The notes under the pieces: generated by a model
The model's input: only the letters and a program-made list of their open reading frames with translations
What the model was told of the DNA's origin: nothing
Database searches by the model: none
Translations under genes and position numbers: made by a program
Shown here: in pieces, positions 10,884 through 60,409 of the stretch
How the letters are laid out: every line of letters starts with the position of its first letter
Numbering within the stretch: position 1 is the stretch's first letter
Virus record (IMG/VR): IMGVR_UViG_3300007512_002775
Coordinates: 10,948-74,947 of that record
Source: a virus
Direction: 5' to 3' (one strand)
Length of the DNA stretch: 64,000 nucleotides

Positions 10884-11083
10884 CCATCAACATGATGCAG
10901 TTCATGCATTTTACAAGTAAGTTGTCGGCCGTCATCCAGTTTTAATACACAGAGTAATTCTTTCGAAGCAGTACCTCCGACTAGCCATTGGGGGTTATCT
11001 GCTGTTATTATCTCTACAATTATCCCTTTGATAGTTGCATCCAAAAAGGCTTGCACCTCATCTCCTACTCGCATGGCTCTCAT
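10880..11083 (-). CDS. Small hypothetical protein
   Basis: MRVGDEV SH3/KOW-like start. Confidence 0.6.
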   Translation of the reverse strand: MRAMRVGDEVQAFLDATIKGIIVEIITADNPQWLVGGTASKELLCVLKLDDGRQLTCKMHELHHVDG

Positions 11084-39551: not shown

Positions 39552-40232
39552 TTATGCTCTAAATAATTGACCTACTTTGTCTGCTCGACGGAAGCGCTTT
39601 TCAATGTGGGCCCAATTCAGTTCTTTCATCATGGCAAGCACGTACGTCCTACTATTATCTAAATAGTCGCGATAATAGGCACCTACGTTCATATCCATCA
39701 CAATGATCGGAAGAACTCCTATGCCAACATTTTTAGCCTCTTCATCAACAACAAAATTAATATACCTCTGGAGAAAAACCGAATAACCGGTGATGGCATA
39801 GCCGTCTCTAGAAGACATACAGCAAGCGATGAAGTCTCGCTGCCACGCATCAAACGTCCCAAAATCTCTCTCCAGCCGGATAAAAGCAATGGAGTCCATG
39901 GTGATTTGGCTACTCAGATCGCTAATATTTTCGAAATACATTGCCCTTAAAAACGAAGCGTTCATGTTGTATACTTCATCTAACTTCAGAGAACGGTAGT
40001 CACTAGATTTATTGTTGGCGTTTTCGCGATCCGCCCCATCTAATTCTGCACTCACCTTGTTCAGCGCAGCCACAAATTCCTCAAACTCTTGACGCTGCGC
40101 TGTTTTGGTGGCATCGCTCAGTAGATCTGTCTTTAAATCAAATTGTTTGGGTTCGGTAACGTAAGCTTCCTCTATCGTCTTCCCTATTGTTGAATTGATC
40201 GATCTAACAACCTCTCTCTTTAAATCTTTCAT
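39552..40232 (-). CDS. Fe/Mn superoxide-dismutase-like protein with degenerate metal ligands
   Basis: YFENI, LERDFGTFDAW, PIIVMDM...AYYRDY...Y...LNW. Confidence 0.75.
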   Translation of the reverse strand: MKDLKREVVRSINSTIGKTIEEAYVTEPKQFDLKTDLLSDATKTAQRQEFEEFVAALNKVSAELDGADRENANNKSSDYRSLKLDEVYNMNASFLRAMYFENISDLSSQITMDSIAFIRLERDFGTFDAWQRDFIACCMSSRDGYAITGYSVFLQRYINFVVDEEAKNVGIGVLPIIVMDMNVGAYYRDYLDNSRTYVLAMMKELNWAHIEKRFRRADKVGQLFRA

Positions 40233-42972: not shown

Positions 42973-43374
42973 TTAGAGTTTCCTCACGCTAACATTTGAT
43001 GCTTTTAAAATATCAACACTAGACATATCGCGATATTCTTCGCTAAAAACGACTTCATCAATTCCTGCGTTAATGATTGCTTTAGCGCACATGCGGCATG
43101 GCGAGAGCGTAATATACATGATTTTTCGTTTGGGGTTGTTGTAATCTAACTTGAGTAAAGCATTGATCTCTGCGTGGATAAACCCGCTCTGGCCAGGCTC
43201 GTCAGTTTCAGGCTCGTTAGGACCTCCAGAATAATTTCCATTGTAACCCACTGCCAATACTTGAGTATTGTCAGCCGCAACTACGATAGCGCCTACTTGA
43301 AAACGAGGATCATATGATCGCTGGGAGATGGTGCCAGCTGTCGCCATCCAGACTTCGTCCCAATCAGGCCTCAT
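42973..43374 (-). CDS. dCMP deaminase
   Basis: RPDWDE, VGA, GYNG, HAEINA, TLSPCRMC. Confidence 0.92.
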   Translation of the reverse strand: MRPDWDEVWMATAGTISQRSYDPRFQVGAIVVAADNTQVLAVGYNGNYSGGPNEPETDEPGQSGFIHAEINALLKLDYNNPKRKIMYITLSPCRMCAKAIINAGIDEVVFSEEYRDMSSVDILKASNVSVRKL

Positions 43375-43376
43375 GG

Positions 43377-44393
43377 CTATGCACCTTTTTCAGAATCGGA
43401 GCCGCTAGCAACTTCTTGAACAGAAAGCTTCTTCTTCTCGGCATCGAGAACCACATCGACGCCAGCTTCTTCAGCTTTTTTCATCAATTCCTCGATCTCC
43501 GGTTGGATCTCCTCGACAGCCTCGTTGACTAGTTCCAAGACTTCTTCGTCGCCTTCCTCTTCGACGTCGAATAGGTCGTCCACCAGAGCATCTCCCGGCA
43601 GGCCAAAGCCAGCAGCCTTTTTGTGGCCGCCGCCACCAAAGCGTTTGGCAATCTCAGAAACATCGATCCTATCATGGAACGCACGCAAGCTCACCTTGAT
43701 GTTCCTGTCTTCGTGATCGTAGAACCATATCATCGCAAAATCGCAATCCGGCGACAGCCTTGCTCCGATCTCGGACATCCAGTGTGAGGCATTGACCACC
43801 ATCACGTCCATCCCTTCGAACTTGCGGTGGACGGCCTTCTCACACACCTTTTTGACCACAGTCTTAGAATAGGCAAGAATGTAAGAACCTCTCTTCACCG
43901 CATCATCGAATACCGAGTCGTCTTCGTACTTCTCGAACTCCTCGAACTCAAAGGGCACCATGTCAAAGGCCGCGGCGAACTCCTTCGAGTAAGGCAGTTC
44001 CCACTTCCATAGATCTCGATCCTCGATGTAATCGATGAACTTGGGTGCTTCCTTGCCAGGGTGAAAGAAGTCCCAAGCCAAACGCGCGCCTGAGTGCTTC
44101 ATGTCGAAATGTGTATTAGAAATATCGTGAAGCTCTACCATAGCAGACTTGTGGTGGTCAATGACGATCAGGCCCTCGGCATCTTTTATCATCTGCTTGG
44201 TGGTCGCATTATCAAACGAAAAGTCCAAAATTGCTACTGTCTTACCTTTGACGTCAGGTGGTGGCGTACCGTGCTTGCTGGCGTGGTACTCTGCTCGATT
44301 GCCCAATAGCTTCCAAGCCGCGTACGCAGCACCGAAGCCATCAGTACAGTCTTTATGATAAATTAGTAAGTCTATTGAACTGGGTTCTAGCAT
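43377..44393 (-). CDS. DHH/DHHA1 phosphoesterase
   Basis: YHxxCxDG, LDF, IDHH, EDRDLW, SLR, GGGGH. Confidence 0.88.
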   Translation of the reverse strand: MLEPSSIDLLIYHKDCTDGFGAAYAAWKLLGNRAEYHASKHGTPPPDVKGKTVAILDFSFDNATTKQMIKDAEGLIVIDHHKSAMVELHDISNTHFDMKHSGARLAWDFFHPGKEAPKFIDYIEDRDLWKWELPYSKEFAAAFDMVPFEFEEFEKYEDDSVFDDAVKRGSYILAYSKTVVKKVCEKAVHRKFEGMDVMVVNASHWMSEIGARLSPDCDFAMIWFYDHEDRNIKVSLRAFHDRIDVSEIAKRFGGGGHKKAAGFGLPGDALVDDLFDVEEEGDEEVLELVNEAVEEIQPEIEELMKKAEEAGVDVVLDAEKKKLSVQEVASGSDSEKGA

Positions 44394-44950
44394 TAGTCAC
44401 CGTCATACAGATCATTTACAAATGGTGTCTCCGACCAAGCTCTCGGTTCATACATATCAGCTCCACCAACCTCGATCTCTGCAAGATTGTCGATTTTCCT
44501 CACTGTATAGTACGCATTATCACCAGTTTTTACACATACTGCGGGACAAACTTCAATCTTAGTGGCCCAAGGGAGCATCTCCTTTACTTCGTGGAAAACG
44601 TTTCCTGATGCCGAAATCTGGATTGAGGAAGCAACGATCGTCTTGCCCTGCTTAAACAAGTCGATGAGGGCCGTCGCGCAGTCGTCTATCATGAATGCTT
44701 CATCGATGCCGATCACATCATAACCGATACTGTGCGCCACGATGTCCTCTCCGTTGTTAACGTTGATCGCCGGAAACCTGAGGCCAGCATGAGTACAGAT
44801 CTCGCCTTCCTCATAACGATCATCCATCTTCGGCTTGAAGGCCACAACCCGCTTGTTTTGATAAGAACAGCGCTCGAGAACCGAAAGCATCCTCGTCGTC
44901 TTAGAACCAAACATCGGGCCCGTGAACACTATGAATTCTGGATTTTTCAC
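44393..44950 (-). CDS. tdk: Thymidine kinase (type II)
   Basis: GPMFGSKTT, DDRY, IDEA, VGGxxxYEP. Confidence 0.92.
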   Translation of the reverse strand: MKNPEFIVFTGPMFGSKTTRMLSVLERCSYQNKRVVAFKPKMDDRYEEGEICTHAGLRFPAINVNNGEDIVAHSIGYDVIGIDEAFMIDDCATALIDLFKQGKTIVASSIQISASGNVFHEVKEMLPWATKIEVCPAVCVKTGDNAYYTVRKIDNLAEIEVGGADMYEPRAWSETPFVNDLYDGD

Positions 44951-45036: not shown

Positions 45037-45066
45037 AATATAAAATGAGGGCACCGCGGTGCCCTC
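45037..45066 (-). terminator. Intrinsic terminator ending the modification operon
   Basis: Perfect palindrome GAGGGCACCGCGGTGCCCTC (45047-45066) followed by ATTTTATATT on the minus strand. Confidence 0.7.
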
Positions 45067-45127: not shown

Positions 45128-46045
45128 TTAGTCCCTCACCTCCCCCCATGCTCTATAGCTATCGATTGCACCTTCGCTGTAATCGAACTCTGGCGTCGGA
45201 TCTAATTCGCCAGCAACGTTCCAAAACAAAGCTCCCGGACGGCCATGCTCCAACATGTACTTCCATCCCTTGCCGTCATAAGTAGACACCGTATCAAAAG
45301 GTGGCAAGTTTTGAGGTCGCTCTTTAGCCGTGAACGGTCGTGGTTCAGACCAAATCTTCGTTCGGCCGAGCTCTCCAGCTTTCATGTTTCTCGCGACGCA
45401 CACGCCACGCATGTCAGCATTCGGAAAACCAACCTGTAGCCCGCGAGTCAAAACTCCGGTCGAGACCACGGTCCATACTTCCTTCGGCTCAGGAAAGCCA
45501 GATTCTAAGATGTTTTGACAGATTCGAGTAAACCCAGCGATGGTACCAGGGTGGTTTAGACCGAACGGCAGAAACGCTGCACTATTTTCTTTCGCCCATG
45601 CTGCTCCCATTCTATTGAGGTTGGGCATCGCAGCAATACGGCGCCACTTCACTTGCAGATCAACACCCAACTTCTCAGCCAACTCGATGGCAGCTGCTTG
45701 GTGATTTGTGATCCTTTTGCATGCTGGTGCAAACAAGACTACTTTCTTGTTATACAGATTCGCCAGAGAAACGATGGCGCACGGGGCATGTCCCACGCGT
45801 GGCATACTATATACCAATGTTTCTTCGGGCACTTGAGTTACCAACCACTCTCCAGCTCGAGCTTTCGTACCACCGTGACCAAGGAGATCCTCCCTCGCCA
45901 CTTGAAACCCATTCACCTCTTCAATTATTACCGGGGGCAGTTTTGATACAAACCCCTCTGTCATTTTCAGATAGGTCTCTCTATCAGGATACTCATTATT
46001 GATCTCCTTGTTGATGCCATCTATTACGTGATTGTTATGTGCCAT
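45128..46045 (-). CDS. PLP-dependent enzyme (fold-type II) of phage DNA-hypermodification type
   Basis: REDLL..GGTKAR (PLP Lys), LPFGL, STGVLxxGL, YDGKxW, LFWNVA. Confidence 0.75.
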   Translation of the reverse strand: MAHNNHVIDGINKEINNEYPDRETYLKMTEGFVSKLPPVIIEEVNGFQVAREDLLGHGGTKARAGEWLVTQVPEETLVYSMPRVGHAPCAIVSLANLYNKKVVLFAPACKRITNHQAAAIELAEKLGVDLQVKWRRIAAMPNLNRMGAAWAKENSAAFLPFGLNHPGTIAGFTRICQNILESGFPEPKEVWTVVSTGVLTRGLQVGFPNADMRGVCVARNMKAGELGRTKIWSEPRPFTAKERPQNLPPFDTVSTYDGKGWKYMLEHGRPGALFWNVAGELDPTPEFDYSEGAIDSYRAWGEVRD

Positions 46046-46136
46046 AATCAGTTCCTCCTTTTGTATGACATTGCATTATGCAACAATTATATTTTACCGA
46101 TGTAAAGAGGTTCGTGAAGCCCTTAAAGTGATTTTT

Positions 46137-47186
46137 TTACCAAACCCATTGAGGGGTGCCTAACATCCATTTCTGTCGCCCTTTAGGGTGATCAGTGATC
46201 AGTGATGCATTCCATATCTTGGTTCGATCTAGATGACCGTACGTCTTCTCACGATTGTCAGGAATGTAGTTCTCGACGTATCGGATGTAATCACACATGA
46301 CATCCTCCAGGTCCTTCGGGTGACCACCGGTGCGATGCTGGGCTTCTTCCATCACAAGATCATAGTAGTCTGCCTTAGAAACCCTCCCCACTTTCTCAGC
46401 AAAGAGATCCATGGCTTCCTGGGCATTCTTGCCATAGTACATGTGACTGCCTTCTTCTACGAGCTCGGGGTAGTAATCCGCGAGATCGGCCGCGATCGCC
46501 GTGTATTGAAAGTGGAACCTCTTCATGCCGTGCTCTCGGTTCCACTCGCACATGAAGTCTACGATCTCTCGAATCGTCGCCTTTCCCCTGCAGCTTGTGG
46601 CTCTAAAGATAAACTTCCATACGTCATCCACCAGATGATGAGCATGCTCCCCAAAATAGACTTTGCCTCCGGTCCGATAACCGTTTCTAGGCTTGGGAAA
46701 AGCAGGGATCTGATTGCCGATCGAAGTGTACATGACACCATCGTAACTGCGGATCCAATCCGTCATCTCCTCTACTGTCTTTAGCTTTGCGATCTCTGGA
46801 ATTATCGTGTTACGGTAACCGTGATCAGCCTCAAAGGATGCGCCAGAGCCGGTAATTCGATGCACGAGAAAAACGAACAGCCACTCTCGATGCGTCCAGG
46901 CCACGTGCAGCCCTTCATAAGTGTGGTTCCGTGCCCGATGATCAGCGTCCCACTTGTAGTACTTGGGAGCTCGACCAGCATACCACAGATCTTGCAGCAT
47001 GTTTTGGAAACCAGCGTGCTTCCTTTCTACTGTGTCGTAGATGGTGACGTTTTCCATCAGATCATCACCACACGAACCAATGTAAGACATGCCGCCTAGG
47101 TTGCACTCCTTCTGGACTAGCTTCGCTTTGGCAGTATATTGCAGGAAATCATCAAAGTATTTGTTAAATTTAATCCTGTCTGACAC
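46137..47186 (-). CDS. Amino acid:DNA transferase (aGPT-Pplase)-like protein
   Basis: YDxVxR, HRITGSG, DLADYYP, GKNA, C-terminal DLEDxxCDYxRY; cluster context. Confidence 0.6.
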   Translation of the reverse strand: MSDRIKFNKYFDDFLQYTAKAKLVQKECNLGGMSYIGSCGDDLMENVTIYDTVERKHAGFQNMLQDLWYAGRAPKYYKWDADHRARNHTYEGLHVAWTHREWLFVFLVHRITGSGASFEADHGYRNTIIPEIAKLKTVEEMTDWIRSYDGVMYTSIGNQIPAFPKPRNGYRTGGKVYFGEHAHHLVDDVWKFIFRATSCRGKATIREIVDFMCEWNREHGMKRFHFQYTAIAADLADYYPELVEEGSHMYYGKNAQEAMDLFAEKVGRVSKADYYDLVMEEAQHRTGGHPKDLEDVMCDYIRYVENYIPDNREKTYGHLDRTKIWNASLITDHPKGRQKWMLGTPQWVW

Positions 47187-48194
47187 TCAAATGCTCCATA
47201 GATAGTGTTCTGGGGAAATGTGCACGGAACGTGGTTTTTCCATGACACCAAAATCTAGTTCGCTAAATTCGTTGATGAAGTACCTCGGCCATTCGATCAC
47301 TTCAAACCCCAAAAAGGTGCATCGGTGTCGAAGTGCGTCGTTGAATGCCTTCTTGGCTTCGTTACGCTCTCTCCATGAACCCCAAAAAGGCTGGCCCTTA
47401 TAGTAACCCGTCTTCGGTAATCGACGACTCTCATTTTCAATCGGTAGCGCAGCAACGACCTCGACCGTTTCCAATTCATAAGCTTCTTTGCATCGAAGAA
47501 GCTCTGCTAGATATCGGTCAGCCAAATCCACCGCCATCTGCCTCTGTTCAGAAGCACTCTTTGCTAGGCGGCAGACGTGGTGCCTGATGTCGATGTTACC
47601 AAAGTAGGTTCGAATAGAGAGTAGCTCACTAGGGTTTGAGCCGTGGGTATATTCTTCTATCCAATCCGAAAAACCTAAGTTCAGTGCGCCGTTCAGGGTC
47701 TGGCCATCCAGTCTGGTCAAATAAGCATCGGGACGCCAAGCTGCTAGAGCATGAGAGTCTCCTAACACCAAGCTTTTCTGATCTTGATCATGCTGCCTAA
47801 CTGTCTTTGCGGAAGCACAAACCTTGGAAATCTTAGCAAAATCCAGCTGCCTGTAAGCAGGAGAAGAGTGCGGCCGCACACGGCAATGGAGTCGCTGGCC
47901 ATAATCAGGGCAATCAATATCTAAGGAGAAGAGTTGCCCAGAAAAGTTCTGGATCTGCTTTGCCTTAGCGGCTAAAGCGTCCCATGACTTATGGTCCTTA
48001 AGGAATACATTGACGCCCTTGGATTTCTCCTTAAACTCCATGCCATGTTCGAAGTAGACGATCTCTTCATTTGACCAGTCTCTTTTAAAAGCTAGTTCAG
48101 CTCCTAAGCATTTTCCCCACATGCGAGCCCAACCCGTACGATGACTCGTGGTACGATTTGCATGAGTGGTAATAGGGCTAACGATTACAGACAT
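47187..48194 (-). CDS. Hypothetical protein with SGNH/GDSL-like domain
   Basis: VLGDSH, FGNIDxRHH, C-terminal SVHISP. Confidence 0.6.
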   Translation of the reverse strand: MSVIVSPITTHANRTTSHRTGWARMWGKCLGAELAFKRDWSNEEIVYFEHGMEFKEKSKGVNVFLKDHKSWDALAAKAKQIQNFSGQLFSLDIDCPDYGQRLHCRVRPHSSPAYRQLDFAKISKVCASAKTVRQHDQDQKSLVLGDSHALAAWRPDAYLTRLDGQTLNGALNLGFSDWIEEYTHGSNPSELLSIRTYFGNIDIRHHVCRLAKSASEQRQMAVDLADRYLAELLRCKEAYELETVEVVAALPIENESRRLPKTGYYKGQPFWGSWRERNEAKKAFNDALRHRCTFLGFEVIEWPRYFINEFSELDFGVMEKPRSVHISPEHYLWSI

Positions 48195-48202
48195 CCTTAC
48201 TC

Positions 48203-48640
48203 CTAAAATAGACCAGTGGAACCAAAGCCGCCAGGACCACGGATGGTCGCCTGCTCGAAGAGTTCCGATTCCTCGACCACCTCTATTGTATCATATAACA
48301 CGGGAAGTAGCACCAATTGGACGAGTTTTTCTCCGGGCGAGATCATAGTCGTCTTGTCACCGACGTTGACGACGTGCAAATGGATCTCCCCTTGGTAATC
48401 CTCATCGACGACACACGCACCGACGAACAGTGACTTTTTGAGAGCAATGCCGCTCTTGTTAAAAGCGATCAATGCATACCCTTCTGGTACATTAGCTTTT
48501 ATACCACTCGGTATGAACACTTTTTCGCCGACACCGATGCAAGCACGATTAAAATCCTCAGGGACATAAAAGTCCAGCCCTGCTGATTGTGGTGTGCCCC
48601 TAGTCGGTGTCTTTACTTTCCGGACCTTCGTGATCCTCAT
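48203..48640 (-). CDS. dut: Trimeric dUTPase
   Basis: AGLDF, KSG, VVDEDYQGE, QL, RGPGGFGSTG. Confidence 0.92.
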   Translation of the reverse strand: MRITKVRKVKTPTRGTPQSAGLDFYVPEDFNRACIGVGEKVFIPSGIKANVPEGYALIAFNKSGIALKKSLFVGACVVDEDYQGEIHLHVVNVGDKTTMISPGEKLVQLVLLPVLYDTIEVVEESELFEQATIRGPGGFGSTGLF

Positions 48641-48905
48641 CGGCCTTCTCCTTGATGTAATTGTCCAATGCACCAATGTAAGCGCATGCATCCAGTAAAT
48701 TGTCTTCTCTATAAGAGTACGAATGTCTAGAAAGCTTGAGGGCGACCAATGCAGCGTACATGTCTGCAGCCGTAAAATCCTTACCAGTCATGCCACGAGC
48801 AATGCTTGCTGCCCTCTCCATGCCCTCCGAAAACGGGCCGTACTGCCTGGCTTTCTCTTCGGACCGCTTATTGACGATCTCGTTTGCTCTATCTAGTATG
48901 TTCAA
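48600..48905 (-). CDS. DUF6378-like (MazG-fold nucleotide pyrophosphatase-like) protein
   Basis: ILxxAxxIV..R...YG...KLSR...DNLLDxxxY; TTG start with AAGGAG. Confidence 0.7.
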   Translation of the reverse strand: MNILDRANEIVNKRSEEKARQYGPFSEGMERAASIARGMTGKDFTAADMYAALVALKLSRHSYSYREDNLLDACAYIGALDNYIKEKADEDHEGPESKDTD

Positions 48906-49731
48906 AGAACAGCTCCTTTTTTCTGCATGCAGCAAAGTTGTTTATGTCACTTTTTTCCATGTCTTCTTTCGGCAGAAACTTCCTTTCTTTTAGCAGCTTC
49001 TCCCAAGTCCAGCCAGCCTTTAATTCGAACCGGCGAGTGTTTGATGGGGGACTAACCGGTTCTTCAGTTAAAACCTTTGTCGCCATCTCAAAATGCCGTT
49101 CATACAGATGCAAGCTGCCAGCGTGGTGATGGTAGGAGCCTAGGCTGACGCCTGCCCCTCTCTCGTTCAATTCGTTGAGCATCAGTTGTTGGAAGAGCGC
49201 AAATGTGAAAACATCGTTACAAAAACCAAAGATGATGTCGTTGGATCGCATCGCAACACCTAGATGTAGGCTGTTATTACGAATGAAAAATTGCAGATAT
49301 TGGGTACACGGATAATCTAGCTTGTTCTTCCCTTTGTGGTGCGGCTGATTTATGACAATCGTCGCGCGACGTGTATCGTTGTCGCCCAACATCTCGTCGA
49401 TAGCCCATTCCCACTGAGCAGAAAGATATACGCCGTAATTGGACTCAACTTCTCCGTCTTCGTCTTGGATCTGCTCCCATATCTTGGCCAGTTTGCCGAT
49501 GTTATTGACAGCAGGATTTTTCGATAAATACCAGAGCCATTCTGCGATCGCATAAGTGGAAGAAAACTTCCTGGCCTTAGAGTGAATCATCAGCTCTGTG
49601 GGATCTGCGATCTCAAACTGCTGGAATAGAAGCTCTTTCTGCTTACTTCCTCGGCTGTTCACTTCTTCGCCAAAATAATTGACTTTGTGCAGCAGCGATT
49701 TAAAAGCCGAGTCTAGCGAATCAAACTTCAT
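48889..49731 (-). CDS. Thymidylate-synthase-fold enzyme, dCMP hydroxymethylase-like
   Basis: PCT catalytic Cys, MRSNDIIFGFCND (Asp at the base-specificity position as in T4 gp42), GSLHLY. Confidence 0.8.
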   Translation of the reverse strand: MKFDSLDSAFKSLLHKVNYFGEEVNSRGSKQKELLFQQFEIADPTELMIHSKARKFSSTYAIAEWLWYLSKNPAVNNIGKLAKIWEQIQDEDGEVESNYGVYLSAQWEWAIDEMLGDNDTRRATIVINQPHHKGKNKLDYPCTQYLQFFIRNNSLHLGVAMRSNDIIFGFCNDVFTFALFQQLMLNELNERGAGVSLGSYHHHAGSLHLYERHFEMATKVLTEEPVSPPSNTRRFELKAGWTWEKLLKERKFLPKEDMEKSDINNFAACRKKELFFEHTR

Positions 49732-49747
49732 ATCATTTATTTTATCA

Positions 49748-52700
49748 CTAGTTGTTGCCAAGTTCAAGTACCTTTCTCCAATTTGTGAAAAACCCAAAGT
49801 CTCCATTCTGCAACTGTATTGCCAGGACCGAGTAAGGGGAGAGCGTCGCATCTTTAGGGGTGTTCCAACAGAATACCCTGTGCTTCTTACCTGAGTTGCC
49901 CAAGACTTCTATGAGCAAATAAGGCTTGCCGTTTTTGGTCTTCTTCGAAATAGCCTTCAGGCAAAGCACCCAATAAATGTCTTCGCCTGAGAACTCGTCG
50001 ATCGACTTGACGCCCTTCTCTTGCAACTTCTCCAAAAATTCTGCCGGGAGAAGCATCTCAACGTTCACTGTGCCTAGCAGGTTCATGCTGTTACTTGCCA
50101 CTTCGGACATGGTCCACTCGCTGGTATCGCCACCTTCCAGTAGCAACTCCTTCATGAAATTCATGCCTCGAAAGGGATCCTTCTTGGTGCTCTTCTTGAG
50201 TTTATCCCAGTGATCGATGACCACATCGTGAAAATGCTTGTAAGAATCAAAGTGGGCTTTTAGATCCATGGAATCGAAAGCGCGTAGCTGGATAAGGACC
50301 GACATGGCGCGCTTATTGAGCTTCGAGTGCTTCCACTTACCATCCTCACTCCAAAGCAAATCTTCGACGTTCTTATACGGTCTGTTTTGCATGATCTCGT
50401 AGACTGCAGCATTTCCTATGCCTTTGCAAGAAGAAAAGGAAGGCACGAAAGCCTTGTCTTCCGTACACACCCACGTCGTGTCTGATTTATTAATGTCAAC
50501 ACGAGCTATTTTGTACCCTAACGCCTTAACTTCAGAGAGGGCCTTAGCCAACTTCTTTGGACTTCCTGACGCAGCCTCGAGGTAAGCAGTAAGCCATTCT
50601 TCTTCGTAATGAGTAAGCATCCAAGCACAGTAGTATGAGATAAAAGCATAAGACACTGCATGCGATGCATTGAATCCGTAGCCGGCAAAATAGAGGATCT
50701 TCTCATAGAGCTCTTGTGCAATGCCCTTGTTGATGCCATTTTCTATAGCTCCGCTAATGAACCTCTCCTGGAGCGCGCGGGCATTTACTACGTTTTCATC
50801 GCCGCCCGAGCTCGGCTTCATCATCTTGCGAATCTTGTTGAGTTCTATCTTTGGAATGCCGGCAACTACGTTGCATAAAGCCATCGCCTGCTCTTGGAAG
50901 ACGATGCAACCATAGCTCGGCTCCAGCACCTCTTTGATCAGTTCATGCCCGTATTCCACAGACTCTGGGTTCTGCTTAGCGTTGATGTAAGTTCTATCCA
51001 CCTTGGCACTCAAGGGGCCTGGACGATATATCGATGTCAACGTTGCAATATCGATGATGGATTCTGGCTTGGCTTTTTGGAAGAGCTTTTGCGCGCCTTT
51101 CTGTGTGCATTGGAAGACTCCGGCAAATCGGCCCTCGTGATACACGTTCCTATAGACTTCTGGATCTTTCAGATCCATCTTCTTCGGATCCATGTGCTCT
51201 TGGTACCATGCCTTGACGTCTTCGAAAGTAGGATTCTGATTGCCTTCCTTCTTGAGGATGCGCCCGATGGCGCCTTCGATGATGCGCAGTGTCTCCAATC
51301 CTAGCAGATCGAACTTGACCCACCCAAAGGTCTCTAAGTGCTTCGCCGTCATGCCTTCGATCCATGGCGTCTGCACTTCGCCCTTCGTGACGATGAGCGG
51401 CATCCGTTCAGCGATCCTCTCTGATACGATGACTCCACCAGCATGACGCCCCAAACTCTTGTTCTGCTTGAAGAGAACGTTGATCGGCTCGAGAATATCC
51501 GGGTACTTCTCTAGGAAGTCACGCGTGCGCTCAGAATACCGTAGCGCCTCCTCGAGAGTGATGTCAAAGCTGACGTCATCTTCAGGCATGGCTCGACGGC
51601 CTCGGGCGACGTCCTTCTCCAGAGTAGACAACGCAATGTTGACTTCCTTGAATTCCACCCCATAAAACCGAGAAACGTCTTTGATCAGCGACTTTAGCTT
51701 GAAGGTGTTGTAATTGGAAATGGGCACCACATTTTCAGTGCCGAACTCGTCTCGAAGTTGATCGATGAGCTTGTCTCTGTCAGAGACATCCGTATCAATG
51801 TCTGGGTATTCAGTTCGAAGCGGGTCCAAGAAGCGCTCAAAGAGCAGGCCGTACTCGAGCGGATCTATGTTAGTGATACCGAGCAAGTAATTGACGAGCG
51901 AGCCGGCTCCAGATCCACGCCCGGGCCCGACGATCTGCTTCTGCCATGCCACGTCGATGATCTTTTTCATCGTCAAAAAATACTCAGAGAACTTCTTTTC
52001 CTTGATGACCTTCAATTCAGAAACAGTACGTGCTACATATGCAGGCTCTGTGTGGAGGCCTCTTTCTACCAACGCAGATTTGGCCATCTCCATGAGTGCC
52101 TGATCTGCCGTCTTCTCTTTAGGGATGACGTAAGACGGCAACTTCATAGAACAATCAGGGTGAATTTCATCGATCTCATTGTGTGCAATGTCATGCGTTC
52201 TCTCAATCGCACTCCGCACGATGTCATCACAATAGAACTCCATGCCCTCAGTAGTGGTACGATACGACTCCCAGACTCCCTTTGCATTCTTAGGATAAAG
52301 TTCGCACTTGAGATCTTCTTCCGATTGAGGCAGCGCACTCGGATCGTAATCTTTATAGTTGAGCCAACCGAGCTTTTTGTACAGCTCCCTCTCTTTCCAA
52401 TGTTCAGGACGAGCGTAATGACTATCGCACGTAACGATCAATCGATCGTCTGTGTTAGTCCTTTGAGCGAACTCCATGAGAGCCCGATTTACTAGATGCT
52501 GGGCACTGAGCTTGTTGAATTGGAGCTCCAAGCAAACATTGTCCCGGCCGACGGCATCTGTGAGCTGATCGTATACGTTCCCGATGCCGAGCATGATCTT
52601 CTCCATCAGGCTTCCATCGTCCAACAGTTCTGGCTTCAATTCGTCAAATTCGACTTGCTGCAGATACCTGAAAACCTCATATGCCATCGGGCCGCCTAGA

Positions 52701-53359
52701 CATGCAGTCGTAATGAGAAGGTGGCCACCCTGGGCTGCCTCCTTGAGCATCTTGTAGTCGACACGAGGAAAACGGTAGAACCCCTCCAGGTATCCCTTTG
52801 ACACGAGCCCAAATAGTCTCTCGAGACCGACTGATGTCTTAGGCAGGACGACCATGTGATGACGCCTCTTGATGGGATCATAGAACTTTCCCGACTTCGT
52901 CTCTTCTTCGTTTTCTATTGTGAGGCTTGCATCTTCGATACCGACGTCCAAGATCTCATCGTTGGCATCGGTCACCGCTTCGACACACGTTGCCAGCTTC
53001 TCCCTCTCCTCAGACAACTTTTTGATCGCTGCAGCGTCCCCTCGCTTTTGGGCTCGTCGTAACTCGTAATCAGTCTCCCATAGGTTTAGATCCGGATGCA
53101 CATACATCTCGCTGCCTGGCAGGAACTTGAAATCGTGGCCTGCCTCTTTCATCTTTTTGGCATGCAAATAAGCGTATGCAAAACCGTTCATGTGGCCATG
53201 ATCGGTGAGCGCCCATGCATCTGTGCCGTTTTGAAGGCAAAAATCCATGTGATCGCTCGGATAGCCCAAACCATCGAACGTGCTAAACCCTGAGTGGGAA
53301 TGTAGTCCGGCGAAGCGATCGGGTAAAATCAGATCTTTCTTAGATGAATGTGACGACAC
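49748..53359 (-). CDS. dnaE: DNA polymerase III alpha subunit
   Basis: PHP motifs HSH, TDHG, DSH; GRGSGAGSL, LFERFL, PDIDTD, HAGG, KFDLLGL, YGFNxSH. Confidence 0.96.
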   Translation of the reverse strand: MSSHSSKKDLILPDRFAGLHSHSGFSTFDGLGYPSDHMDFCLQNGTDAWALTDHGHMNGFAYAYLHAKKMKEAGHDFKFLPGSEMYVHPDLNLWETDYELRRAQKRGDAAAIKKLSEEREKLATCVEAVTDANDEILDVGIEDASLTIENEEETKSGKFYDPIKRRHHMVVLPKTSVGLERLFGLVSKGYLEGFYRFPRVDYKMLKEAAQGGHLLITTACLGGPMAYEVFRYLQQVEFDELKPELLDDGSLMEKIMLGIGNVYDQLTDAVGRDNVCLELQFNKLSAQHLVNRALMEFAQRTNTDDRLIVTCDSHYARPEHWKERELYKKLGWLNYKDYDPSALPQSEEDLKCELYPKNAKGVWESYRTTTEGMEFYCDDIVRSAIERTHDIAHNEIDEIHPDCSMKLPSYVIPKEKTADQALMEMAKSALVERGLHTEPAYVARTVSELKVIKEKKFSEYFLTMKKIIDVAWQKQIVGPGRGSGAGSLVNYLLGITNIDPLEYGLLFERFLDPLRTEYPDIDTDVSDRDKLIDQLRDEFGTENVVPISNYNTFKLKSLIKDVSRFYGVEFKEVNIALSTLEKDVARGRRAMPEDDVSFDITLEEALRYSERTRDFLEKYPDILEPINVLFKQNKSLGRHAGGVIVSERIAERMPLIVTKGEVQTPWIEGMTAKHLETFGWVKFDLLGLETLRIIEGAIGRILKKEGNQNPTFEDVKAWYQEHMDPKKMDLKDPEVYRNVYHEGRFAGVFQCTQKGAQKLFQKAKPESIIDIATLTSIYRPGPLSAKVDRTYINAKQNPESVEYGHELIKEVLEPSYGCIVFQEQAMALCNVVAGIPKIELNKIRKMMKPSSGGDENVVNARALQERFISGAIENGINKGIAQELYEKILYFAGYGFNASHAVSYAFISYYCAWMLTHYEEEWLTAYLEAASGSPKKLAKALSEVKALGYKIARVDINKSDTTWVCTEDKAFVPSFSSCKGIGNAAVYEIMQNRPYKNVEDLLWSEDGKWKHSKLNKRAMSVLIQLRAFDSMDLKAHFDSYKHFHDVVIDHWDKLKKSTKKDPFRGMNFMKELLLEGGDTSEWTMSEVASNSMNLLGTVNVEMLLPAEFLEKLQEKGVKSIDEFSGEDIYWVLCLKAISKKTKNGKPYLLIEVLGNSGKKHRVFCWNTPKDATLSPYSVLAIQLQNGDFGFFTNWRKVLELGNN

Positions 53360-53688: not shown

Positions 53689-53909
53689 TCAGAGCTTACG
53701 TCCGCAGAGTGATCAGCAACAGCCTGCATAGCTTGTATGTTTTGCTCAAAAACGTCCATGAACTCTGGGGACGGTATCACCCTTCCGTCTTTTACTACCA
53801 GTTCCAGAGTGCGGAGTTGATCCGAAATGTCTGTACCGGTCAAAATACCCAATTGGATCAATTTCACAATTTGAGCAATAGTAGTGTCATCAAGTTTTAC
53901 GGTTTTCAT
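53685..53909 (-). CDS. Hypothetical protein
   Basis: GGAGG RBS; coupled. Confidence 0.65.
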   Translation of the reverse strand: MKTVKLDDTTIAQIVKLIQLGILTGTDISDQLRTLELVVKDGRVIPSPEFMDVFEQNIQAMQAVADHSADVSSD

Positions 53910-54721
53910 TAGTGTCCTCCTTGGCGGATCGGGGCCCAATGGGTCGTGCGGCCATCAGGTGTTTTTATTCTTTCCACAGTATTTCCTTCTGCATCGGACT
54001 TTCTATTATAGCAAACGAACCTCTCACTGTATCCCACTCTATAACCAGAAAAATCCCTATGAGTCAAAAAAGTTGCTCCTCCGTGCTCAAAAGAAGACCT
54101 CATGACTTGTTCAATGCATTCTTTTAGGTTCAGCAATTCGAAATCCTCAAACTCTGAGACTGTGCGCCGGGGATCCATTTTAGCCATCCATAGCGCTTCT
54201 GCTTTAATGTAGTTGCCCACGCCTGCCAAGATCGATTGATTCATCACGGCTTTACAGATATTGTGGCCGTCCTTGCTTCTAACTCGATCTAAAAACTGCT
54301 TAGGATCAACATCATCACTTAGCAGATCTAGGCCTAAAGAACTGAGCTTGGACACGAGCGCCTTCCTTCCTTTTACTAATTTCAGCGTTCCAAAATTTCT
54401 TATGTCGTTAAAGAAGACTTCTGGGCCTTCTTCAAAGCTCATTTTAAAGCGGGCATGCTTGGTGGGGTTTTCTGACCATCGGCCGCTCATCCCAAATGTG
54501 CACCATAGATTATAGTCATTATTAAAAATAACGAACATAAACTTTCCATGGCACCCCACACCAATCGTTTTCGTAGGCAATTCCTTACGAAACGCCTCTA
54601 AACCAGGCAACTCATTTTTAGTATACCGGCCGGAGATCACGGAAGCTTCGATGATTTTCTTGCCAGAGATCGATCTAGCTAACGAGTTAGAATTCTTTTT
54701 TACCTCGGGCCCCTCAGGCAT
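53909..54721 (-). CDS. Fpg/Nei DNA glycosylase (zincless-finger type)
   Basis: N-terminal PEGPEV, GKF, GMSG, DxRNFG, GVGNY, GRTTHW without four Cys. Confidence 0.92.
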   Translation of the reverse strand: MPEGPEVKKNSNSLARSISGKKIIEASVISGRYTKNELPGLEAFRKELPTKTIGVGCHGKFMFVIFNNDYNLWCTFGMSGRWSENPTKHARFKMSFEEGPEVFFNDIRNFGTLKLVKGRKALVSKLSSLGLDLLSDDVDPKQFLDRVRSKDGHNICKAVMNQSILAGVGNYIKAEALWMAKMDPRRTVSEFEDFELLNLKECIEQVMRSSFEHGGATFLTHRDFSGYRVGYSERFVCYNRKSDAEGNTVERIKTPDGRTTHWAPIRQGGH

Positions 54722-55160
54722 CTTTTTCACTTTTTAGCCACTCTATGTATCGCTTTAAAGAACCGTCGTCGCTAACGACTCGCTCCCAGTCTCCCAAACA
54801 AAATACCTTATAGCAATCATCTGCGTATTCGCCACATGCATACAACTCAGAAGGCATATGCCAGTCCATGGAGTCAAATTCTTGTGAGAATCTAATCAGT
54901 GATTTACTGCGACGATTGTACAGGCCGAGCGGCCTCAGCAGCTCTGCCAATTCACCTGGTTCTGCTTCTGACATTACTCTAGCAGACGGGTACCTATCAA
55001 ATAATGCTGGGTAGACTCTATCGACTTGTTTTCTAGCTGTTTGGTTATGCAGGATGCATGCCACTAAGATCTTCCAAGTGTCAGGCCATAAATCTTCTTG
55101 CAACATGCCTATAGGCGACTTAGGCGGCTTCCAAGCTAGATCAAGGAAAAACTCATGCAT
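54714..55160 (-). CDS. HhH DNA glycosylase, MBD4-like
   Basis: WxPPxSP..LQE.L..D.WK.L...I..N.T, LxPLGL, GxYxxDxYxxF, D..L..Y..WL. Confidence 0.8.
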   Translation of the reverse strand: MHEFFLDLAWKPPKSPIGMLQEDLWPDTWKILVACILHNQTARKQVDRVYPALFDRYPSARVMSEAEPGELAELLRPLGLYNRRSKSLIRFSQEFDSMDWHMPSELYACGEYADDCYKVFCLGDWERVVSDDGSLKRYIEWLKSEKDA

Positions 55161-55187: not shown

Positions 55188-55994
55188 TTACAATCTACTG
55201 TTGACAGAAATTATTTCGATCGGAGTCGCTATATACTCGTTCCACAGACTGGTCTCTACCTTGGCATCACAAGAATCCAACTCATAACACAAGTTGTCAA
55301 TCCCACGCCCAGGATAACCCAATCGATACATATTGCAGGCGCGTCGACCATTATCGAGTGCCATGGATTTTATATCGCTCCTGAATCCTGCGCGGACGTT
55401 ACCGATGAATTGAACTAATACAACAGACTCACTGCGGAAAAACGGCCGTTCCATCACTGTGAAGCTAGATATGTCATATTCTATCCCGGCAGCTATGGAA
55501 TCGATTAACCGTCGAGCACCGGACTCAGTCGTGTAATGATTTAATTGCTTGGGATTATAAACAGTGCCGTAAACCTGTTGAGTAAACTCTTCGTCGAGCA
55601 TCACATAAGGCTCCATATCGCCGCGAGAATAAAAATAAGCAAATTTTAGCTTAGTGATATCCGGAAAGTAACTGCCGTATTCTTTCTCAAACGTCCAAAA
55701 CCTGTGATTGACAAAATCTTCAACAAAATCCAAAACATTCTTCTCAGTCAATAAATCCCACCGCTGCACCTCATTGTGGAGTTGATAACCAAAGTATTCC
55801 GTAACCAGCTCAAGAAAATTATCAAAATCTTGAATGTTACATATTTGGGGGTGTTTACAACTCATCTGCCCACCGCGCGAGTCTAACCCTTGGCCTTGGA
55901 AGTTCAAGAGGTGATCGACCACGTGCTCCCATTCACTTAGCGTATGAAACGATGATGCTGGCTTCATGTATCCACGAACTTTTACGCTTGGCAC
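55188..55994 (-). CDS. Hypothetical protein
   Basis: Long ORF in operon; HYT motif. Confidence 0.65.
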   Translation of the reverse strand: MPSVKVRGYMKPASSFHTLSEWEHVVDHLLNFQGQGLDSRGGQMSCKHPQICNIQDFDNFLELVTEYFGYQLHNEVQRWDLLTEKNVLDFVEDFVNHRFWTFEKEYGSYFPDITKLKFAYFYSRGDMEPYVMLDEEFTQQVYGTVYNPKQLNHYTTESGARRLIDSIAAGIEYDISSFTVMERPFFRSESVVLVQFIGNVRAGFRSDIKSMALDNGRRACNMYRLGYPGRGIDNLCYELDSCDAKVETSLWNEYIATPIEIISVNSRL

Positions 55995-56689
55995 TTCGTA
56001 CTCCTATATGCTTCGACCGCGATGGGCCAAAGTTCCTCGGCAATAAGTAGACACCCTTCCGCAACTTTCTGGATTTCCCATTGGGCCCCAGGATGCATCC
56101 TCAAGTCAATGAACTTGAGAAGATTACTCAGATTTACTGTGCCGTAATATTCAGTATAGAGGTTCTGGGGGAGAACTCCTCTGGCTTGTTCTCTGCATAC
56201 GCCTGCAGTGAGAAGATCTTCATAGAGTTTGAGCGATTTTTTATGGTGCCTTTTAATGATGGTAGAAGCATATCCCAATCGTTTCTTGATAAAAGGCAAG
56301 AATTTCCCTTCAGTGGATGCTTGTCGATTAGATTTGCTCTGTGCGCGCAATCTCTCAGGCTCGTAAAACCGAATGTCAATATCAGTATATCGTCTGGAGA
56401 TTTCATTATAAGACCAAGTTCTATGCCGATGATGTTGGCTACGTACAAACAACGGTACTACAAATCTGAGTGTTACTACGTTGTGTTCAAAGGTGGACGT
56501 ATGCTTGTGCCTCACCAGATAGTCAATTAGTTTTTTGTCGCGATCATCCAGAGCACTTTTATGCTTACCGAAGGAGACACGGGCAGCATTGACGATCGTC
56601 AGATCGTCTCCCATGTGGTCCACATATTCTACGGATCCGATGCCATCATCATAGAGCGAGACTCGTTTAACGTGCCCCTCCTCACTCAT
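55982..56689 (-). CDS. thyX: Flavin-dependent thymidylate synthase
   Basis: AARVS, HxSxFEH, RHRxxSYNEISRRY, EQARxVLP, AQWEI. Confidence 0.96.
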   Translation of the reverse strand: MSEEGHVKRVSLYDDGIGSVEYVDHMGDDLTIVNAARVSFGKHKSALDDRDKKLIDYLVRHKHTSTFEHNVVTLRFVVPLFVRSQHHRHRTWSYNEISRRYTDIDIRFYEPERLRAQSKSNRQASTEGKFLPFIKKRLGYASTIIKRHHKKSLKLYEDLLTAGVCREQARGVLPQNLYTEYYGTVNLSNLLKFIDLRMHPGAQWEIQKVAEGCLLIAEELWPIAVEAYRSTKCQA

Positions 56690-59872: not shown

Positions 59873-60409
59873 TCACTCGCCCTCTTCGCCTTCGACAGCC
59901 TGAATCTGTTGATCCGAACTGCCGACAATACCGGCTTGCCTCTTGTATCCTTTGGTCTCTTCTAAGAATTCTAAATTGCTTATTACTCTAAAATCCGTAA
60001 AGCATCGCACTATTACTAACTGCAGTGGCAATTTGGCTCCAGCAGGGATGTTCGTATCTCGTTCTCCAATATTGACAAGATTAACAAAAATCTCTCCAGT
60101 ATATCCTGGATCGATAACGCCACCGCGAATTACTAATCCGGTATGTATTATACTTCCTCTTCCACGGATCAATCCGACGCAGCCTGCAGGAACATCGATT
60201 TTGACTCCGGTAGGGAGTAGTATTGGTTGCTCTCCTAATACCGACCACTTAGTCCTGCCCATAACTTGGGCGTCGTCTCCAGCGTTATATAGATCCAGCC
60301 CGGCGGATTCTCCGTCATAAGCGGTGCCATAGGATTCTGGAGTTATGCCATGCGCGTGCAGCACAGCGGCACCCCGATCTGTCAAACTCAACTTAACGGA
60401 TTCAATCAT
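59873..60409 (-). CDS. Divergent trimeric dUTPase-family protein
   Basis: AGLDL, RGS, GVIDPGYTGE, QL, RxxGxxGSS. Confidence 0.85.
   Translation of the reverse strand: MIESVKLSLTDRGAAVLHAHGITPESYGTAYDGESAGLDLYNAGDDAQVMGRTKWSVLGEQPILLPTGVKIDVPAGCVGLIRGRGSIIHTGLVIRGGVIDPGYTGEIFVNLVNIGERDTNIPAGAKLPLQLVIVRCFTDFRVISNLEFLEETKGYKRQAGIVGSSDQQIQAVEGEEGE

Follow-up and report, generated by a model that had tools for sequence, protein, structure and literature searches.

Amino-acid-type DNA hypermodifications are known on thymine and, in the case of Mom, on adenine, and the cytosine derivatives described to date are, to our knowledge, sugars and one carbamoyl group. Thymidine hypermodification in phages M6, ViI and PaMx11 employs a 5-HMUDK kinase, an AADT/aGPT-Pplase, and either a PLP decarboxylase or an FAD oxidase (Lee et al. 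2021, PMC8989533; Wen et al. 2024, PMC11472151), and the protein family of M6 gp52 acts, by experiment, on amino-acid:base conjugates in DNA (PMC8989533). Genes coding for PRA-PH and dCMP deaminase have been linked to cytosine modification (PMC8670742). Here we describe a phage operon that, on balance, probably encodes a C5 cytosine hypermodification pathway consisting of hydroxymethylation, a step performed by an SGNH-fold protein, transfer by an AADT-like protein, and decarboxylation by a PLP enzyme; no description of such a cytosine pathway was found in the literature searched.

Genome context and organization of the operon

The source is IMG/VR record IMGVR_UViG_3300007512_002775, and the window, which is the whole stretch of DNA that was analyzed, spans 64,000 nt (positions 10,948 to 74,947 of that record). 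The contig is about 28% complete relative to the genome (CheckV), and the absence of a gene from the contig alone therefore says little. Six co-oriented genes are organized as a minus-strand operon 3' of dnaE, in the order TS (thymidylate synthase) homologue, DUF6378 protein, dUTPase, SGNH protein, AADT-like protein and PLP enzyme (Table 1). The ATG of the TS homologue is 17 nt past the dnaE stop, and the AADT-like gene directly abuts the SGNH gene. An earlier note on this DNA had described these six open reading frames as closed by a terminator; all of them are present, and HMM and structure searches assigned a family or fold to each.

Table 1. Features of the operon and its surroundings, in window coordinates.
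Feature	Position	Strand	Basis and remarks
dCMP deaminase, accessory pool enzyme	42973..43374	-	With the module in 20 of 80 loci
TK	44393-44950		
Terminator-like hairpin	45047..45066	-	8 pairs, 6 G-C, T-rich tail; ~60 nt past the last gene
Fold-type II PLP enzyme, 305 aa	45128..46045	-	PALP; hhalign to M6 gp52
AADT-like protein, aGPT-Pplase superfamily, HhH-glycosylase fold, 349 aa	46137..47186	-	Predicted structure
Two-domain SGNH-fold protein, 335 aa	47187..48194	-	AF2 model, Foldseek
Trimeric dUTPase	48203..48691	-	Pfam PF00692, 83 bits; motifs VVDEDYQGE, RGPGGFGSTG
DUF6378 protein, 111 aa at most (start uncertain)	48600..48935	-	Pfam PF19905, 40.7 bits (cut-off 27.1)
Thymidylate-synthase homologue with dCMP hydroxymethylase signature, 280 aa	48889..49731	-	Pfam PF00303 Thymidylat_synt, 73 bits, E 2.8e-20
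DnaE-type replicative polymerase	49748..53359	-	ORF translation, by inspection; directly upstream of the operon
ThyX	55982..56689	-	Pfam Thy1, E 7e-49
Second dUTPase-superfamily protein, dCTP-deaminase-like	59873..60409	-	Pfam dUTPase 60 bits, DCD E 6e-7

The DUF6378 protein is probably a nucleotide-modification accessory. Over its full length it aligns weakly (hhalign, E 0.024) with a DUF1599-like family present in 35 related loci, and the pyrophosphatase activity that had been ascribed to it gained no support. The separate ThyX that the earlier note had reported is present, and with both ThyX and TK encoded the phage still makes dTMP. The second dUTPase-superfamily protein may serve to deplete dCTP. 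Neither a dedicated dNMP kinase nor a dCTPase was identified. Other base-excision enzymes are also encoded by the phage.

A predicted dCMP hydroxymethylase

The top PDB sequence matches of the TS homologue are the T4 dCMP HMase (81 bits) and the CMP HMase MilA (78.7 bits), with ThyA at 50.8 bits. Its residues were compared at the diagnostic positions 143, 169 and 177 (E. coli ThyA numbering) as in PMC13326640, an acidic residue at 143 being taken to denote water access and a hydroxymethyl product, and retention of Asp169 to denote an enzyme other than a 5-hydroxy-dCMP synthase. The protein has the catalytic Cys146 in a DYPC motif aligned to DFMC of T4 gp42, the substitutions L143D and N177D, and an unchanged Asp169. 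Since Asp143 is found in dUMP HMases too, it is a sign of hydroxymethylation but does not tell which base is modified. The Asp-for-Asn motif to which attention had been drawn, RSNDIIFGFCND, is confirmed and aligns to RSNDVVFGFRND of T4 gp42, whereas position 177 is Asn in five known dUMP hydroxymethylases (SPO1 gp29, PhiW-14, ViI, M6 gp58 and PaMx11 gp51). These five form a separate clade in a phylogenetic tree (100/99 support), with the window's TS homologue outside of it and sister to the gp42 clade; some module-linked Asp177 TS lineages branch near the dUMP clade. In a sample of 80 IMG/VR loci, the D143/D169/D177 combination is present in 47 of 48 TS homologues adjacent to the module and in all four of the distant ones, and 51 of the 52 have Asp177. 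That the TS homologue makes 5-hydroxymethyl-dCMP from dCMP is thus well supported by sequence.

A 5-hydroxycytosine route was also considered, and is unlikely because neither the window's protein nor any of the 52 relatives examined has lost Asp169.

The same residues bear on whether the operon instead specifies an ordinary thymidine hypermodification, in which, as for M6, ViI and PaMx11, the TS homologue would yield 5-hm-dUMP and 5-hmU would be the substrate of the AADT-like and PLP enzymes. The downstream enzymes do share superfamilies with those of the thymine pathways, and the nearby dCMP deaminase and dUTPase could feed dUMP; the deaminase gene does not discriminate between thymine and cytosine readings, since T4 has one too. 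We regard a thymidine pathway as very improbable, given the near-universal Asp177 of the module-linked TS homologues against Asn in all five dUMP enzymes, the failure to find a 5-HMUDK with searches whose controls were positive (see below), and the retention of ThyX and TK, whereas 5-hmU phages remove dTTP (PMC8989533).

The AADT-like protein and PLP enzyme

The aGPT-Pplase/glycosylase-like fold that had been suggested for the product of the AADT-like gene is borne out by its predicted structure (AF2, pLDDT 92.9), which is AADT/HhH-glycosylase-like. Searched against BFVD, the model matches 'Amino acid:DNA transferase domain' proteins with TM 0.90, followed by Pplase1 and HMUDK helical-domain proteins, and its first-ranked PDB match is the PaMx11 gp46 PUGT (8z2n; Z 10.5, rmsd 4.0, 209 residues). 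The fold also matches 8-oxoG glycosylases and queuine salvage enzymes (Z 8–9). The window protein and 36 relatives have no Pfam match, a search of the contig with the PF18724 (ADDT) and PF18723 profiles found nothing, and profile alignments of the family to M6 gp51 and PaMx11 gp46 were not significant.

An E294-D295-x-x-C298 motif is invariant in all 80 AADT-like members, and appears to correspond in position to E243-T244-x-x-C247 of gp46, as judged by structural alignment ranges and motif similarity. In gp46, C247 is the proposed C6 nucleophile; the Cys motif resembles that of the transferases, and glycosylases use Asp/Lys instead. With this fold and motif, we propose that the AADT-like protein is a cytosine-specific amino acid:DNA transferase.

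PALP matches 22 of 31 members of the PLP enzyme family (best E 2.9e-10), and the window's enzyme aligns with the M6 gp52 DNA decarboxylase over 218 columns (hhalign 96.5%, E 8.3e-10) and with PHROG 7093 (E 2e-37). The candidate Schiff-base lysine is the invariant K61, within an R51-x-D53...G-T-K61-x-R motif. The enzyme is a putative decarboxylase of the amino-acid:base conjugate.

An alternative is that 5-hmC is made, but that the SGNH, AADT-like and PLP proteins act on some other substrate (RNA, the nucleotide pool, or, in a glycosylase-type role, host or damaged DNA) or on the 5-hmC mononucleotide prior to replication. The likeness of the AADT-like fold to that of 8-oxoG glycosylases and of queuine salvage enzymes and the presence of other base-excision enzymes are compatible with this, and the 5-hmC carbamoyltransferase works on 5-hm-dCTP too (PMC8670742). 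Nonetheless, we think it unlikely, as the top structural match is a DNA-bound transferase, the AADT-like family has an invariant transferase-type Cys motif whereas glycosylases use Asp/Lys, its association with Asp177 TS genes is tight but variable in order, and, as described below, the SGNH module is fused to a DNA-kinase helical domain.

The SGNH protein and the search for a kinase

The SGNH protein (AF2 model, pLDDT 90) has an N-terminal alpha/beta domain (residues 1–130) with invariant S17, H18, H50/G51, N62, F64, S90, P96 and R105, and a C-terminal hydrolase/transferase domain with G145-D146-S147-H148, GNID (199–202) and H325. The earlier description of a GDSH/SGNH-like protein is upheld by this second domain (residues 133–335), which has an SGNH fold and matches SGNH esterases and acyltransferases with Z 14.2 (Foldseek, VIA). 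Blocks I (G145-D146-S147), II (G169), III (G199-N-I-D202) and V (H325) are conserved; the DxxH aspartate is absent, with R322 in its place. SGNH enzymes are mostly hydrolases, and no member that acts on DNA was found in the literature searched. No acyl donor for an esterification by the SGNH protein is evident.

No 5-HMUDK-type kinase had been recognized in the window, and this holds for the contig's other 10.9 kb as well. Queries with M6 gp54 and an HMM built from four kinases recovered all of the controls (ViI, PaMx11, PhiW-14 and M6). With these queries, no homologue of the 5-hmU DNA kinases (M6 gp54, ViI gp67, PhiW-14 gp37) came up in the contig or in 98 related loci, nor in the records of five relatives or a 100%-complete relative of 179.6 kb. 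The sole P-loop kinase on the contig (L001:7255-8364) is a Zeta_toxin match with relatives in pelagiphages and not in T-hypermodifying phages. The reported lack of a glucosyltransferase also stands, with zero glycosyltransferase family matches among the proteins scanned. Because the contig represents only part of the genome, a different type of kinase or glycosyltransferase could be encoded elsewhere.

In two metagenomic proteins (P0121 and P0124) the SGNH module is fused to an HMUDK_hel domain (45.8 and 42 bits, respectively), and an HMUDK_hel protein is encoded beside the kinase in M6 (gp55) and PaMx11 (gp50). Because of this fusion to a kinase-adjacent protein, we place the SGNH protein in the position of the kinase, and propose that it derivatizes or activates 5-hmC in DNA. 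Activation of the hydroxymethyl group seems to us a better fit than acylation of the adduct, which was the guess of the earlier note.

Distribution of the module

The AADT-like family is encoded on more than 560 IMG/VR contigs, which is a lower bound. At 80 sampled loci, the same-strand partners of the AADT-like gene are the SGNH gene (68 loci), the PLP gene (66) and the TS homologue (50), the SGNH gene being the commonest, ahead of PLP. The gene order of the module varies among loci, with tight co-occurrence with the Asp177 TS genes. Many related loci are in T4-like genomes with gp44/45, UvsX, PRA-PH and dCMP deaminase genes, and many encode two paralogous helical proteins (family X), a further likeness to the thymidine hypermodification clusters.

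At 12 of the 80 loci there is no SGNH gene within 10 kb of the AADT-like gene. These loci would suit a scheme in which the AADT-like enzyme uses 5-hmC unactivated, through acid-catalyzed loss of water after attack of the Cys on C6, and the product is then tailored by the SGNH protein, for instance through acylation or de-esterification of the adduct. Coupling of thiols to unactivated 5-hmC is within the abilities of C5-methyltransferases. However, several of the 12 are truncated contigs, the SGNH gene outranks even the PLP gene as a partner, and its product is fused to the kinase-partner helical domain and not to tailoring enzymes, and we give such a scheme a low probability.

Proposed pathway and its implications

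In the pathway that we favor, with activation by the SGNH protein, the TS homologue would turn dCMP into 5-hydroxymethyl-dCMP, which would be phosphorylated and then incorporated by the phage DnaE, a polymerase that would need to accept 5-hm-dCTP. The dUTPase, dCMP deaminase, ThyX and TK would maintain normal dTTP, so that thymine would stay unmodified. The SGNH protein may then act on 5-hmC in DNA, instead of a P-loop 5-hmU DNA kinase, most likely esterifying the hydroxymethyl to provide a leaving group. In the third step, suggested by fold and motif, the AADT-like protein would flip the base and Cys298 would attack C6, with expulsion of the leaving group giving an exocyclic methylene that captures an amino acid; Asp295, which is Thr or His in the thymine enzymes, may read the N4 amino group. 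Finally, by homology to M6 gp52, the PLP enzyme would decarboxylate the attached amino acid, leaving on cytosine an amine-bearing side chain that should block restriction enzymes.

The earlier proposal of an adduct built on hydroxymethyl-cytosine is thus supported by the TS signature, the AADT fold and Cys motif, the gp52 homology, the lack of a kinase match and the co-occurrence of the genes; which adduct is formed, what the SGNH protein does and that modified dC is in fact made are what we infer. More tentatively, and with some doubt, we suggest that many uncultured phages, marine T4-like myoviruses and this DnaE phage among them, replace cytosine or decorate it with side chains derived from amino acids at C5, without recourse to an ATP-dependent DNA kinase, with SGNH proteins esterifying 5-hmC in DNA and a new Cys-dependent AADT clade installing the amino acid.

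If true, no amino-acid-type hypermodification of cytosine would have been known before, nor any SGNH enzyme with a DNA base as its substrate. Such a modification on cytosine would extend the natural DNA bases by a new class, and would likely alter the response of these phages to CRISPR nucleases, to restriction enzymes and to type IV nucleases, which depend on 5-hmC. As the module is so common in IMG/VR, it may be a source of bias when environmental viral DNA is sequenced or treated with enzymes. Enzymes for ATP-free, site-specific derivatization of 5-hmC would help 5-hmC labeling and sequencing, and the two apparent exchanges, an esterase-fold enzyme for a kinase and Asp for Thr beside the predicted catalytic Cys, offer concrete, testable determinants of base specificity.

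Comparison with known systems

The operon resembles those of M6, ViI and PaMx11 in its predicted succession of a TS-homologue hydroxymethylase, an HhH-fold transferase that would flip the base and has an E-x-x-x-C motif, and a gp52-homologous fold-II PLP enzyme, and in the location of the gene cluster beside replication and nucleotide-metabolism genes. It differs from them in the Asp177 dCMP signature of the hydroxymethylase, in a two-domain SGNH protein as constant partner with no P-loop 5-HMUDK found, in a transferase family that is missed by the Pfam ADDT and aGPT-Pplase models, and in the residue before the Cys, which is Asp in place of the Thr or His of the thymine enzymes.

The TS residue signature is shared with T4 gp42, of the 5-hmC glucosylation system, to whose clade the TS homologue is sister, and many related loci also contain the PRA-PH and dCMP deaminase genes that PMC8670742, which describes 5-hmC carbamoylation, links to cytosine modification. 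Unlike in those two systems, no glucosyltransferase or carbamoyltransferase was found here, and the partner genes predict an amino-acid substitution at the exocyclic carbon, not O-glycosylation or O-carbamoylation. The 5-hydroxy-dCMP synthases of RB69 and DLP3 (PMC13326640) are likewise TS homologues that combine N177D with an acidic residue at 143, but have D169N where Asp169 is kept here. The SGNH protein has the fold (Z 11–14) and the Ser, Gly, Asn and His blocks of SGNH/GDSL esterases and O-acyltransferases, such as sialate O-acetylesterase, PatB and the OatA C-terminal domain, but it lacks the DxxH Asp, has an extra conserved N-terminal alpha/beta domain, and is encoded in a phage DNA-modification gene context.

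Organization of the module and its surroundings

The 64-kb window lies in a single IMG/VR viral contig of 74,947 bp, a genome fragment with a CheckV completeness of 28%, and nearly all of its genes are carried on the minus strand. The earlier note had proposed an undescribed hypermodification built on hydroxymethyl-cytosine, and this reading is supported in every computational test applied; on sequence comparisons and structural models, we lean towards a module (a TS homologue, an SGNH-fold protein, an amino acid:DNA transferase-like, or AADT-like, protein, and a fold-II PLP enzyme) that modifies C5-hydroxymethyl-cytosine in DNA.

The note's description of six co-oriented genes after dnaE followed by a terminator is accurate in its ORFs, coordinates and hairpin. 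The neighbors are genes of phage replication and nucleotide metabolism: UvsX, DnaB, RNR, ThyX, thymidine kinase, dCMP deaminase, a second dUTPase/DCD-like protein, Fpg/Nei and HhH-GPD glycosylases, and a DHH phosphoesterase.

Genes and terminator-like hairpin of the candidate modification operon, in window positions
Feature	Position	Strand	Remark
DnaE-type polymerase, 1203 aa	49748-53359	-	six packed genes come directly after
TS homologue	48889-49731	-	first of six genes after dnaE
DUF6378 protein	48600-48935	-	
dUTPase	48203-48691	-	
335-aa SGNH protein	47187-48194	-	
349-aa AADT-like protein	46137-47186	-	abuts 335-aa gene
305-aa PLP protein	45128-46045	-	
Hairpin, G+C-rich with T-rich tail	45066-45047	-	after 305-aa gene

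Just upstream of dnaE (53909-55160, minus strand) lie the genes for the Fpg/Nei-type glycosylase (273 aa) and for a short protein of the HhH-GPD family (148 aa). In four related loci (L047, L074, L078 and L079) an HhH-GPD homologue immediately precedes the AADT-like gene. The second dUTPase-superfamily protein (59873-60409, minus strand) matches a dCTP-deaminase-like Pfam model (E 6e-7) and could act as a dCTP depleter, the role of gp56 in T4. Comparison of the DUF6378 protein with the DUF1599-like and PRA-PH-like neighbor families gave E 0.024 at best. Other minus-strand genes code for a Fe/Mn superoxide dismutase-like protein with the C-terminal domain only (39552-40232), a GroEL-type chaperonin (22839-24467), and a protein of 739 aa carrying metal-binding repeats of the MopE type (17215-19434).

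Distribution of the module

A pattern scan of IMG/VR yielded at least 562 confirmed AADT-like relatives. Among 80 related loci, the genes on the same strand as the AADT-like gene include those coding for the SGNH protein (68 loci), the PLP enzyme (66), the TS homologue (50) and dCMP deaminase (20); identities are only 30–45% and the gene order is variable. Many of the loci are T4-like, with gp44/45 and UvsX together with PRA-PH and DUF1599 genes; MetaGPA tied PRA-PH and dCMP deaminase, among other partners, to cytosine modification (PMC8670742). At 45 of the 80 loci (e.g. L026:3262-4266) a helical protein of ~335 aa with an EDKLC/EHPYC-type motif near its C-terminus, here called family X, is encoded between the AADT-like and PLP genes; it has a weak hhalign match to the AADT-like family (36%), and was not found in the window's contig. 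At 26 T4-like loci (e.g. L032:1291-1713) the TS and AADT-like genes flank one for a 141-aa protein, whose match to the UDG superfamily is weak (E 0.0011).

Neither megablast of the region nor tblastn of the 349-aa protein gave a match in 50,697 phage records, and the whole module is seen in no cultured phage of that collection. In a scan of bacterial and archaeal genomes the gene occurs in only 14 MAG contigs, of scattered and inconsistent taxonomy, and in no isolates; this is a viral module with no cultured representative so far.

A probable hydroxymethylase of the dCMP type

The TS homologue matches Pfam Thymidylat_synt (E 2.8e-20), and its best scores among PDB sequences are with T4 dCMP hydroxymethylase (81 bits) and the CMP hydroxymethylase MilA (78.7 bits), versus at most 50.8 bits for any ThyA. 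Three TS positions are diagnostic: N177D denotes cytosine substrates, an acidic residue at position 143 denotes hydroxymethylation, and D169N denotes 5-hydroxy-dCMP synthases (Lee et al. 2026, PMC13326640). The window protein has D143-Y-P-C146 and R-S-N-D169-...-N-D177, and D143, D169 and D177 are present in 47 of the 48 TS homologues adjacent to an AADT-like gene, as well as in four more encoded elsewhere in the relatives' genomes. All five experimentally linked dUMP hydroxymethylases (SPO1, PhiW-14, ViI, M6 and PaMx11) have Asn at position 177.

In a maximum-likelihood tree these five form their own clade (support 100/99), and most module-linked TS homologues cluster with T4 gp42 (100/100), a group to which the window protein is sister (91/80). 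The presence of D177, and a phylogeny that separates the window protein from the dUMP hydroxymethylases, are consistent with the note's reading of a dCMP-type enzyme with Asp. Three module-linked TS homologues (from loci L008, L009 and L054) branch beside the dUMP-hydroxymethylase clade yet carry Asp177 (RSQDVVLGFTYD and similar), and these residues suggest independent switches to cytosine specificity. With Asp177 kept near the dUMP clade, the module therefore recruits cytosine-type enzymes from more than one lineage.

A candidate amino acid:DNA transferase

Neither Pfam nor PHROG offers a match to the 349-aa protein, and not one of 36 relatives is hit by an AADT or aGPT-Pplase model. Its AlphaFold model, made with 36 homologues (pLDDT 92.9), gave nothing significant in Foldseek against the PDB alone; in BFVD it matches proteins annotated with an amino acid:DNA transferase domain (TM 0.90, 40% identity) and, more weakly, Pplase1 and 5-hmdU-DNA-kinase helical-domain proteins. 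After VIA re-alignment the top PDB match is the 5-PmdU glycinyltransferase PaMx11 gp46 (Z 10.5), followed by archaeal 8-oxoG glycosylases (Z 8–9).

In gp46, Cys247 is proposed to attack C6, with Glu243/Thr244 proposed to hold a metal at O4 (Wen et al. 2024, PMC11472151). This motif reads E243-T244-I-L-C247 in gp46 and ETVLC in M6 gp51; the paralogues gp50 and gp55 carry EHTLC. In the window protein it reads E294-D295-V-M-C298, whose E, D and C are invariant in 80 IMG/VR relatives, and C298 would fall at the C247 position by the structural alignment ranges (model 12-313 on gp46 chain 8-268). The predicted fold, closest to gp46, and the conserved E-D-x-x-C are consistent with the transferase-like identity that the note had given this gene. 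Evidence that the protein would use the same Cys-dependent chemistry as gp46 is good but indirect, and the Thr-to-Asp change before the Cys would suit an exocyclic amino group. Comparison of the AADT-like family with M6 gp51 and PaMx11 gp46 by hhalign was not significant. One local hhalign match had aligned the catalytic Cys with a non-conserved Cys213; it was rejected, since most members carry Phe or Leu in this column.

The PLP enzyme

On its own, the 305-aa protein matches PALP marginally (E 0.029), but 22 of 31 relatives are hit by this model (best E 2.9e-10). In hhalign the family profile pairs with M6 gp52 (96.5% probability, E 8.3e-10, 218 columns) over a range that takes in the C-terminal PPFP...YD.K.W...FWN.G block, and K61, within an RxD...GTKxR motif, is invariant in the family. 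Enzymes of the gp52 type are members of a PLP-dependent family for which action on amino-acid:nucleobase conjugates in DNA has been demonstrated (Lee et al. 2021, PMC8989533). The PALP matches of the relatives and the gp52 homology point to a PLP enzyme, as the note had claimed.

The only cultured-phage matches of this protein, at 32% identity, are in Erythrobacter phage vB_EliS_R6L (gp1; L003, KY006853), phage ZS04 and Microcystis phage Mae-JY30. They sit within genes annotated as DNA modification methylase, with an adjoining ParB/sulfiredoxin annotation in Mae-JY30, which suggests a PLP domain fused to DNA methyltransferases in these three phages.

An SGNH protein proposed in place of the kinase

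[quoted passage not shown] A search with M6 gp54 recovers the kinases of ViI, PaMx11 and PhiW-14 and, as it should, gives no hit in SPO1; nor does it give one in the contig or in the records of five relatives, including a 100% complete one of 179.6 kb. A four-kinase HMM run on 7,336 six-frame segments (the contig and 98 loci) recovered only the four controls. The note had recognised no such kinase in the window; with positive controls, this negative result extends across the contig and the related loci. The sole P-loop kinase on the contig is a Zeta-toxin-like protein of 369 aa encoded outside the window (L001:7255-8364); its relatives in pelagiphage HTVC008M and Methylophilales phage Melnitz share 39% identity. 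Relatives occur in pelagiphages and further large phages, not in T-hypermodifying phages, and it never adjoins the module; a dNMP kinase or an unrelated function would both be conceivable. A DNA methyltransferase gene (PHROG 67; L001:8561-9286) lies beside it.

The model of the 335-aa protein (pLDDT 90) has a predicted SGNH fold at residues 133-335 (Z 14.2), with structural matches to sialate O-acetylesterases and PAF acetylhydrolase, and also to the O-acetyltransferases PatB and OatA. GDS(147)H, GNID(199-202) and H325 are invariant in the family, and the predicted fold and GDSH motif fit the GDSH/SGNH-like label in the note; the family profile has no match among PDB sequences. Residues 1-130 are a separate conserved alpha/beta domain, for which an ESM Atlas search returned nothing usable. 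Any resemblance between this domain and the T4 beta-glucosyltransferase acceptor half is weak (hhalign 41%; Pfam match in 4 of 31 members, with E of at least 0.002), the aligned Asp is not conserved, and we regard it as a lead only.

Longer SGNH relatives include fusions to HMUDK_hel, the Pfam helical domain of the proteins whose genes directly follow the kinase gene in M6 (gp55) and PaMx11 (gp50). In the metagenomic protein P0124 the SGNH module is followed by HMUDK_hel (42 bits), and the 979-aa metagenomic protein P0121 joins an FkbM methyltransferase to HMUDK_hel (45.8 bits) and to the SGNH module, a triple fusion that hints at extra chemistry (methylation) in some pathway variants. The SGNH module thus takes the kinase's architectural place, and is therefore proposed as the activator of the hydroxymethyl group; it would activate that of 5-hmC, most simply as an ester. 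We hold this specific step less firmly than the 5-hmC substrate, and direct use of 5-hmC with SGNH tailoring afterwards is a live alternative, the HMUDK_hel fusions arguing for activation. On this contig, a genome fragment, the module has no recognised acyl donor, dNMP kinase or dCTPase.

The SGNH protein is also matched in T4-like Aeromonas phages (44RR, 31, 25 and 35 others), Stenotrophomonas phage IME13, and three Tenacibaculum phages. In 44RR2.8t the match covers the first 335 aa of ORF233c (795 aa; L002:5992-8376; NC_005135 160422-162809); the C-terminal part has only a sub-threshold HMUDK_hel score, and neither the AADT-like nor the family X profile matches this half. The gene adjoins a sodium:solute symporter gene, and 44RR2.8t also encodes a gp42-like Asp177 enzyme. 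These cultured phages may carry a related 5-hmC modification, a possible experimental entry point.

Comparison with known systems

AADT chemistry on cytosine was not found in the literature searched, where it is described for thymidine only. In that literature the known cytosine modifications derived from or related to 5-hmC are glucosylation, carbamoylation (PMC8670742) and arabinosylated 5-hydroxycytosine (PMC13326640). The presence of family X beside the AADT-like gene resembles the pairing of aGPT-Pplase paralogues in the thymine pathways.
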